Shown piece by piece: positions 388-937 of a DNA stretch of 1,167 nucleotides. Each line of letters begins with the position of its first letter. Position 1 is the stretch's first letter. The stretch is from a phage, in the sequence record X03899.1, one strand, 5' to 3'. The notes under the pieces were generated by a model, which had not been told where the DNA came from, did not search any database, and worked only from the letters and a program-made list of their open reading frames with translations. The position numbers were made by a program, and so were the translations under genes.

Positions 388-410
388 TTTAAAGAACCTG
401 AACCATGAGC

Positions 411-431
411 CACTATCTTAGCTTGATAGTG
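411..431 (+). repeat. Hairpin-motif copy H2: 7-bp stem CACTATC/GATAGTG, 7-nt loop TTAGCTT
   Basis: Perfect 7-bp inverted repeat 411-417/425-431 around loop 418-424 TTAGCTT. The loop matches the family consensus T(G/T)AGCTT; the stem sequence is unrelated to the other copies. Confidence 0.6.
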
Positions 432-433
432 TT

Positions 434-450
434 GGCGGCACATTTCCGCC
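434..450 (+). repeat. Companion hairpin H2b: GGCGG-CACATTT-CCGCC (5-bp stem, 7-nt loop)
   Basis: Perfect 5-bp GC-rich inverted repeat 434-438/446-450 around 7-nt loop; starts 2 nt after H2. Confidence 0.45.
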
Positions 451-493
451 CCAAGAGGGTAATATGATTGGCTCGTTTTTAAACCACCCAACG

Positions 494-510
494 TGTCCTG
501 AGCTTGGACA
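494..510 (+). repeat. Hairpin-motif copy H3: 5-bp stem TGTCC/GGACA, 7-nt loop TGAGCTT
   Basis: Perfect complementarity 494-498/506-510 around loop 499-505. Relative to the copy at 845-863, the two outer stem pairs are changed on both strands (T-A to C-G, G-C to T-A), so pairing is kept. Confidence 0.65.
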
Positions 511-516
511 TTGGAT

Positions 517-531
517 ACCAAATTTTCTGGT
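517..531 (+). repeat. Companion hairpin H3b (weak): ACCA-AATTTTC-TGGT (4-bp stem, 7-nt loop)
   Basis: 4-bp inverted repeat 517-520/528-531 around 7-nt loop, 6 nt after H3. An alternative pairing, CCAAAT 518-523 with ATTTGG 538-543, is also possible, so the fold is ambiguous. Confidence 0.3.
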
Positions 532-545
532 CACGAGATTTGGTC

Positions 546-569
546 AACTCGATCGTTGGGAATCATTGG
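546..569. repeat. Diverged B-box copy B3 at the 3-prime end of unit I: AACTCGATCGTTGGGAATCATTGG
   Basis: Shares CTCGAT...GGAATCATT(G/T)G with B1/B2. The equivalent position in unit II (896-909, AACTCGATTAGCC) keeps only the CTCGATT part. Confidence 0.4.
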
Positions 570-759
570 TAATATATGAAGAAATTATCATACCTGAAAG
601 TTTATTTCCACTAATCATGATTTGAGGCGGTAATGAAGAAAAAGTAAAAAAGGTATTACACGTTCATTCCTAAAACTACATAAGAATGGATTTGCAAACA
701 GTGAATGATGATTAGCTTTATGAAAGTAAAGCTTTAGGAGATAATTTTACCTTCGCCCA

Positions 760-776
760 CGTCCTTAGCTTGGATG
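760..776 (+). repeat. Hairpin-motif copy H4: 5-bp stem CGTCC/GGATG (one G-T wobble), 7-nt loop TTAGCTT
   Basis: Pairs C760-G776, G761-T775 (wobble in RNA), T762-A774, C763-G773, C764-G772; loop 765-771 TTAGCTT. It occupies the position in unit II that H2 occupies in unit I. Confidence 0.55.
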
Positions 777-800
777 GAGAAAGATCGAATACTCTGATCG

Positions 801-819
801 CTAGAGATGGTCTCTCTAG
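801..819. repeat. 19-bp perfect palindrome CTAGAGA-TGGTC-TCTCTAG (7-bp arms, 5-nt centre)
   Basis: 801-807 is the exact reverse complement of 813-819. It lies in unit II where unit I has the unrelated hairpin 434-450. Confidence 0.4.
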
Positions 820-844
820 ATTGGGCGTTAACAAACCAGAGGTT

Positions 845-863
845 ACTTCCTGAGCTTGGAAGT
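845..863 (+). repeat. Hairpin-motif copy H5: 6-bp stem ACTTCC/GGAAGT, 7-nt loop TGAGCTT
   Basis: Perfect complementarity 845-850/858-863 around loop 851-857. It occupies the position in unit II that H3 occupies in unit I. Confidence 0.65.
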
Positions 864-867
864 TGGG

Positions 868-884
868 GTGGCGGGGTTTGCCAC
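868..884 (+). repeat. Companion hairpin H5b: GTGGC-GGGGTTT-GCCAC (5-bp stem, 7-nt loop)
   Basis: Perfect 5-bp inverted repeat 868-872/880-884 around 7-nt loop 873-879; starts 4 nt after H5. Confidence 0.45.
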
Positions 885-937
885 ATGAGATCGGTTAACT
901 CGATTAGCCTCTTTTAATAAAGAAGTCGGTGTTGTAC

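Follow-up and report, generated by a model that had tools for sequence, protein, structure and literature searches.

Phage T5 tRNA genes written backwards account for two tandem hairpin units in a 1,167-nucleotide sequence

The DNA analysed here, a stretch of 1,167 nucleotides (sequence record X03899.1; hereafter the window, numbered from its first letter), is a region of phage T5 tRNA genes written backwards, the letters being reversed without complementing. As given it is not natural DNA, a reading to which we assign a probability of about 0.97. The two tandem structured units that drew attention to the window, unit I (402-569) and unit II (749-909), are four already annotated T5 tRNA genes (Val and Lys in the first, fMet and Pro in the second) and not a new family of noncoding RNA. 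The orientation given encodes nothing. The window is thus made of known genes in mirror image, an artefact or a control, and we infer that the reversal occurred in data handling, as a deliberate control or by mistake. The identity with T5, the tRNA calls and the mapping of coordinates are demonstrated here.

The resemblance between the units and the hairpins within them are real and above chance. A local alignment of 396-580 with 743-915 scores 201, compared with a mean of 121 (sd 16) for shuffled sequences; none of 300 shuffles scored as high (z about 5), and a repeat finder recovers the blocks TCCTGAGCTTGGA, CTTAGCTTG and GGT.AACTCGAT common to both units. The collinear similarity of the original prediction thus stands, at an identity of 59% with gaps (101 of 171 columns) rather than the roughly 70% estimated by eye. 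The spacing between the two loop-motif hairpins, put at 83 and 86, is indeed 86 in unit II (765 to 851) and measures 81 in unit I (418 to 499). Two cloverleaf-like four-way junctions, 74-80 nt long, form in each of units I and II; every junction has three hairpins and is closed by a stem of 6-7 bp. Stem sequences differ between the copies with complementarity kept, and the compensated stems, conserved loops and tandem order described earlier are all visible in the folds and the alignment, as images of structured RNA genes. A hairpin is also retained in the interval 432-464 versus 779-817, where the sequence taken to be unrelated comes from two different tRNAs and comprises their anticodon and D arms. 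The G.U pairs lie on the + strand in 261-1167 and on the - strand in 1-260, as predicted for pure reversal and pure complementation, respectively. The window has GC-richer islands (45-55% GC) with stretches of about 30% GC between them.

With the window as given, ARAGORN reports 0 tRNA genes, its relaxed, mitochondrial and intron settings yield only noise, and an Rfam search returns nothing below E=5; a tRNA (RF00005) is thus detected neither by ARAGORN nor by the Rfam covariance model at a score of at least 29 bits. Matches to phages, plasmids and E. coli genomes are absent in blastn with the same letters, and none of the ten ORF products is on record by exact look-up in the collection. No promoter-like or terminator-like site was found adjoining either unit on the strand as given, and a literature search for the loop motif returned only unrelated matches, e.g., Cas12b guide RNAs and miRNAs. 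The pattern AAACCA-N10-CCTGAGCTTGG, of which the window contains three copies, was scanned in genome, viral and metagenome contigs; the 53 loci in genome contigs, 1 in a viral contig and 94 in metagenome contigs are all single chance matches. The only cluster of such matches, in four Ga0307515 contigs, lies in a repeated, probably protein-coding sequence that several contigs of this metagenome share and that is unrelated to the window; L066, L072, L091, L129 and L145 (Ga0307515 and a related contig) are the loci concerned.

The half-units have a regular architecture. In each, a closing stem of 7 bp encloses three hairpins. The first has a 5-bp stem and a loop of 7 nt and is followed by a linker of 4-6 nt; the second has a stem of 4-5 bp and again a 7-nt loop; the third, 1-2 nt further on, has a 4-bp stem and a loop of 9-10 nt that includes GG, and another 2 nt lead to the other strand of the closing stem. 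The dimensions are exactly those of the tRNA cloverleaf with the order of the arms mirrored, the T arm coming first and the D arm last. A tRNA on the reverse-complement strand is excluded because the G.U pairs are on the + strand. Read backwards, TGAGCTT is TTCGAGT, a canonical T loop, and AAACCA is ACCAAA, which supplies the discriminator base and CCA. As a test, the letters of the window were reversed without complementing and run through ARAGORN and blastn.

On the reversed window ARAGORN calls five tRNA genes, each of them canonical and with an encoded CCA. Members of the tRNA family (RF00005) by this analysis are Pro(UGG), Met(CAU), Lys(UUU), Val(UAC) and Ala(UGC). The ARAGORN drawings of the reversed letters contain the complete cloverleaf: a 7-bp acceptor stem, 2 nt, a 4-bp D stem, a 5-bp anticodon stem with 7-nt loop, a variable loop, and a 5-bp T stem with 7-nt loop. 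The nucleotides required of a tRNA were U8, G18G19, U33, G53-T54-Psi55-C56 and a 3' CCA; the reversed genes have canonical U8, G18G19, U33 and TTCGA T-loops, and G3.U70 is present in tRNA-Ala. For example, the reversed tRNA-Lys reads GGGTTGC TA GCTC AACTGGTTTA GAGC ... CTTTTAA ... ACAGG TTCGAGT CCTGT GCAACCC ACCA. The Rfam tRNA model scores the T5 counterparts of these genes at 43.6-69.2 bits (the gathering score is 29), and ARAGORN calls the same genes there.

Four of the mirrored genes lie on the + strand and make up the two units (coordinates prefixed L149 are those of the T5 locus). The first half of unit I is tRNA-Val(UAC), T5t12, at 402..475 (ARAGORN reversed 693-766; 54.9 bits at L149 1889-1962), and its second half is tRNA-Lys(UUU), T5t13, at 483..560 (reversed 608-685; 69.2 bits at L149 1804-1878). 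Unit II begins with the initiator tRNA-fMet(CAU), T5t14, at 749..828 (reversed 340-419; 43.6 bits at L149 1538-1612) and ends with tRNA-Pro(UGG), T5t15, at 835..911 (reversed 257-333; 55.4 bits at L149 1455-1528). The fifth gene, tRNA-Ala(UGC), T5t11, is complemented and not reversed; it occupies 153..227 on the - strand (complement strand 941-1015 of the reversed window), where the CCTGAGCTTGG/AAACCA core had been seen once more, in the opposite sense. Each unit of about 165 bp, taken earlier for one RNA gene, is instead two different tRNA genes 6-7 nt apart. The family that could not be matched to a name does have one, tRNA, masked only by the backwards writing.

The blocks that align the two units all correspond to parts of tRNA. 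ACC..CCAC..C-TTAGCTT is the CCA end, the 3' strand of the acceptor stem, and the T stem and T loop of tRNA-Val and tRNA-fMet. GATTGG.CGTT..AAACCA combines the 5' acceptor strand of Val or fMet, with U8-A9-G10, a 6-7-nt spacer, and the ACCA end of Lys or Pro. The hairpin CC-TGAGCTT-GG is the T arm GG-TTCGAGT-CC (in tRNA-Lys its loop, at 499-505, is the T-loop TTCGAGT), and the second hairpin with a 7-nt loop is the anticodon arm, with CTTTTAA in Lys and TTTGGGG in Pro. The last block, CAC.GAGAT..GGT.AACTCGAT, is TAGCTCAA.TGG..TAGAG.CAC in reverse and covers U8-A9 together with the D arm and the first part of the anticodon stem. The spacings of 81 and 86 nt between the loops are one tRNA length plus a spacer. 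The reversed half-units thus share with RF00005 the full cloverleaf, the conserved nucleotides, a sensible anticodon and the CCA end; in contrast, as given their arms are in mirrored order with the loops backwards, and no tRNA model matches them.

The source of these genes is evident from blastn, in which the reversed window matches 1285 phage records. The best match is Escherichia phage T5 (NC_005859.1), 99.2% identical over 905 nt with E=0, and the neighbouring T5 segment matches the other 260 nt at 100%. Positions 261-1167 correspond to T5 with the letters reversed, and positions 1-260 to the neighbouring segment complemented (L149 2362-2103). The T5 annotation under the match runs, in order, P13a, T5.066, tRNA-Pro, tRNA-fMet, T5.065, tRNA-Lys, tRNA-Val, P13b and RNA2H. 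The likeness to the T5 tRNA cluster (about 31,681-32,842 of the T5 record) is near-identity with the same gene order and spacing from P13a through the start of RNA2H. The window differs from it in being written 3'->5', in having the last 260 T5 bases inverted relative to the rest, and in a few single positions considered below. The T5 tRNA genes are known and have been annotated since the T5 genome was sequenced.

Other T5 features are mirrored as well: the AT-rich 'spacers' are two small phage genes, and the conserved upstream block is two phage promoters. Between units I and II, the 'spacer' mirrors T5.065, a hypothetical protein of 55 aa, at 561..728 on the + strand (reversed 440-607, which reads MKVFRLVVSDKRLG...NGY-stop; L149 1636-1803). 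T5.066, a protein of 52 aa with two transmembrane segments, is mirrored at 916..1074, + strand (reversed 94-252, VKYKIASVFMCTWVIPIVIVGF...WLKK-stop; L149 1292-1450). The -35/-10 core of P13a (TTGCTA, 17 nt, TATAAT) is mirrored at 1107..1135 and that of P13b (TTGCTT, 17 nt, TATAAT) at 348..376, both on the + strand; the promoter features extend over L149 1212-1286 and 1968-2042, respectively. These promoters appear only in the mirrored reading, where a small gene and the tRNAs after it form the polycistronic run that they serve. A possible third unit at the end of the window had been proposed from a weak resemblance of 1147-1167 to 396-418. That resemblance exists within a stronger one, 1100-1167 versus 340-420 (z 6.8), and its source is the similarity of the mirrored P13a and P13b blocks. 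Mapping from the T5 annotation also places the first 40 nt of RNA2H, mirrored, at 261..300 (+ strand), its 3' 132 nt, complemented and not reversed, at 2..133 (- strand), and the first 28 nt of tRNA-Leu(UAG), T5t10, complemented and not reversed, at 233..260 (- strand), where the gene is cut at the junction 260/261.

The original prediction held the units to be duplicated paralogues, and comparison among the T5 genes argues against this. The pair Pro+fMet is 0.58 identical to the pair Lys+Val, other T5 tRNA pairs are 0.48-0.56 identical, and single T5 tRNAs have identities of 0.41-0.67 with one another (mean 0.53). By this comparison units I and II are not the product of a recent duplication, their likeness being no greater than that of any two T5 tRNA pairs. 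What they have in common is the resemblance of all tRNAs: the CCA end, the T arm GGTTCGAnTCC, U8-A9 with the D arm, and the 7-nt anticodon loop. Families of tandem paralogous small RNAs occur in bacteria, e.g., Qrr1-5, PrrF1/2, LhrC1-5 and CcsR1-4. The likeness of the units to such families is superficial, namely adjacent structured units of 75-170 nt with conserved loops. Unlike them, the units here do not each have a promoter and terminator of their own on the strand given, and they are no closer to one another than unrelated members of one RNA class; they are tRNAs rather than regulators.

Reversal of the letters keeps every base pair, G.U pairs included, on the same strand. All the cloverleaves therefore survive as sets of hairpins, with the arms mirrored (T, anticodon, D) and the conserved loops backwards. 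Because the arm order is mirrored and the loops are backwards, tRNA finders, Rfam and BLAST are blind to the window; because pairing and G.U pairs are preserved on the same strand, the stems look compensated and the + strand looks functional. A reversed sequence therefore resembles an RNA of conserved structure without known relatives, since its structure is kept and the searches are escaped. The genes, being known T5 tRNA genes, give the window no biological importance. The lesson is one of method: reversed, uncomplemented sequence retains hairpins, G.U pairs and apparent compensation, yet escapes searches based on homology or covariance models. A cheap sanity check is tRNA and Rfam detection, together with BLAST, on the reversed letters, and the giveaway of mirroring is the tRNA arm pattern 7/2/4/.../5/7/5/.../5/7/5/7 in mirrored order.

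Taken at face value, the + strand as given would encode a new tandem paralogous family of structured small RNAs, each about 165 nt long and with two four-way junctions; its conserved UNAGCUU loops, palindromic in their core AGCU, would perhaps be kissing loops. The hairpins with compensated stems and conserved loops are indeed there, the G.U pairs favour the + strand, and Rfam gives no match. However, the letters read backwards are 99-100% identical to T5 tRNA genes, and to our knowledge no natural process yields the mirror image of a known genome. No relative of the sequence as given occurs in any collection searched, the pattern matches being single and due to chance, and the fold z-scores of the units (-1.1 and -1.4) are unremarkable, with no adjoining promoter or terminator. 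The tRNA calls in the reversed window and the T5 match refute a new small RNA family, which has only a vanishing probability; sequence that is not natural DNA as given cannot encode these RNAs, and the earlier claim of novel RNA genes on the strand given falls with it.

A non-autonomous mobile or repetitive element (a MITE, a REP/BIME-like array, attC sites or plasmid single-strand origins), copied in both orientations within a non-coding region, is likewise an exceedingly improbable source of the units. Copies do occur in both orientations, the largest ORF of the whole window as given is 53 aa, and terminal motifs TGATTCC...GGAATCA are present. Against this, the copies are only 54-59% identical and have compensated stems, unlike copies of a mobile element, and every copy maps to an annotated T5 tRNA or stable RNA. 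The GGAATCA/CTCGAT motifs come from the tRNA-Lys leader and from both ends of T5 RNA2H. It is the one-to-one mapping on T5 genes that excludes this explanation. Arrays of attC, REP/BIME or MITE type and rolling-circle single-strand origins were considered and dropped, as were kinetoplast minicircles, clusters of snRNA or snoRNA, and a phi29-type pRNA. A type I toxin-antitoxin system was discarded as well; the supposed toxin, a hydrophobic 'ORF' of 26 aa (MIMISLLGSCVLMTTLKYEVNRKEEK) at 1015-1095, is a reversal artefact from the mirrored T5.066 coding sequence. A viroid-like or Obelisk-like circle was rejected on the fold of the whole window, which is not rod-like.

There is no evidence that contradicts the window being mirrored T5, and the original interpretation as a whole is partly supported. 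What remain as unexplained details are the flipped block, the differences at 1147-1166 and the insertion at 816-817. The un-mirrored source has a 260-bp inversion with its junction at 260/261 of the window (AAAAAGCACGATCTATTGTCTACCAGTT in the reversed letters), which splits RNA2H and tRNA-Leu(UAG) and ends exactly at the window edge. The window departs from all four T5 records at 1147-1166, by a cluster of five T-to-C differences and a deletion of 1 nt, no more than 21 nt from the other window edge and just upstream of promoter P13a. At 816-817 the D loop of tRNA-fMet has a 2-nt insertion relative to reference T5 (TC when read in the true orientation), and ARAGORN calls this gene despite the insertion (80 nt versus 78). 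The variant letters in the reversed window are AACAAGTAAACCCACGAAAAATG; the exact variant was not found in IMG/VR. On account of the inversion and these two sets of differences, the immediate source is not the reference T5 record itself; candidates are a variant, a contig that was misassembled and an edited copy.

One such source would be a genuine T5 variant, written backwards, in which the 260-bp inversion is real and disrupts RNA2H and tRNA-Leu(UAG). The flipped block joins cleanly at L149 2103 and 2362, and the source also departs from reference T5 elsewhere, at a few positions, which would fit a variant. A real inversion is nonetheless unlikely: the block stops at the very edge of the window, the flipped arrangement of the first 260 nt and its junction are in none of 50,697 phage records and no IMG/VR viral contig, and no phage record covers at least 80% of the reversed query in one piece. 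The T-to-C differences, clustered near the opposite edge, are typical of a contig-end or editing artefact, and they, the inversion and the 2-nt insertion all look like such artefacts. That the variant would carry, in addition to the inversion, the 2-nt insertion in the D loop of its initiator tRNA is correspondingly doubtful.

The T5 record lists several 'stable RNAs with unknown functions' or 'tRNA-like' RNAs between the tRNA genes, e.g., RNA2H, and these stable RNAs remain the sole part of the region that is still poorly understood. None of them reaches the gathering score of an Rfam model. Further RNAs of this kind are RNA2 and RNAIV (L149 960-1205) and RNA3 (L149 94-166). In RNA2H the 5' and 3' ends are complementary to each other (AAGGTATTAGCTCG / CGAGCTAATAGCCTT), and because of this complementarity the CTCGAT..GGAATCA motifs are repeated in the window.
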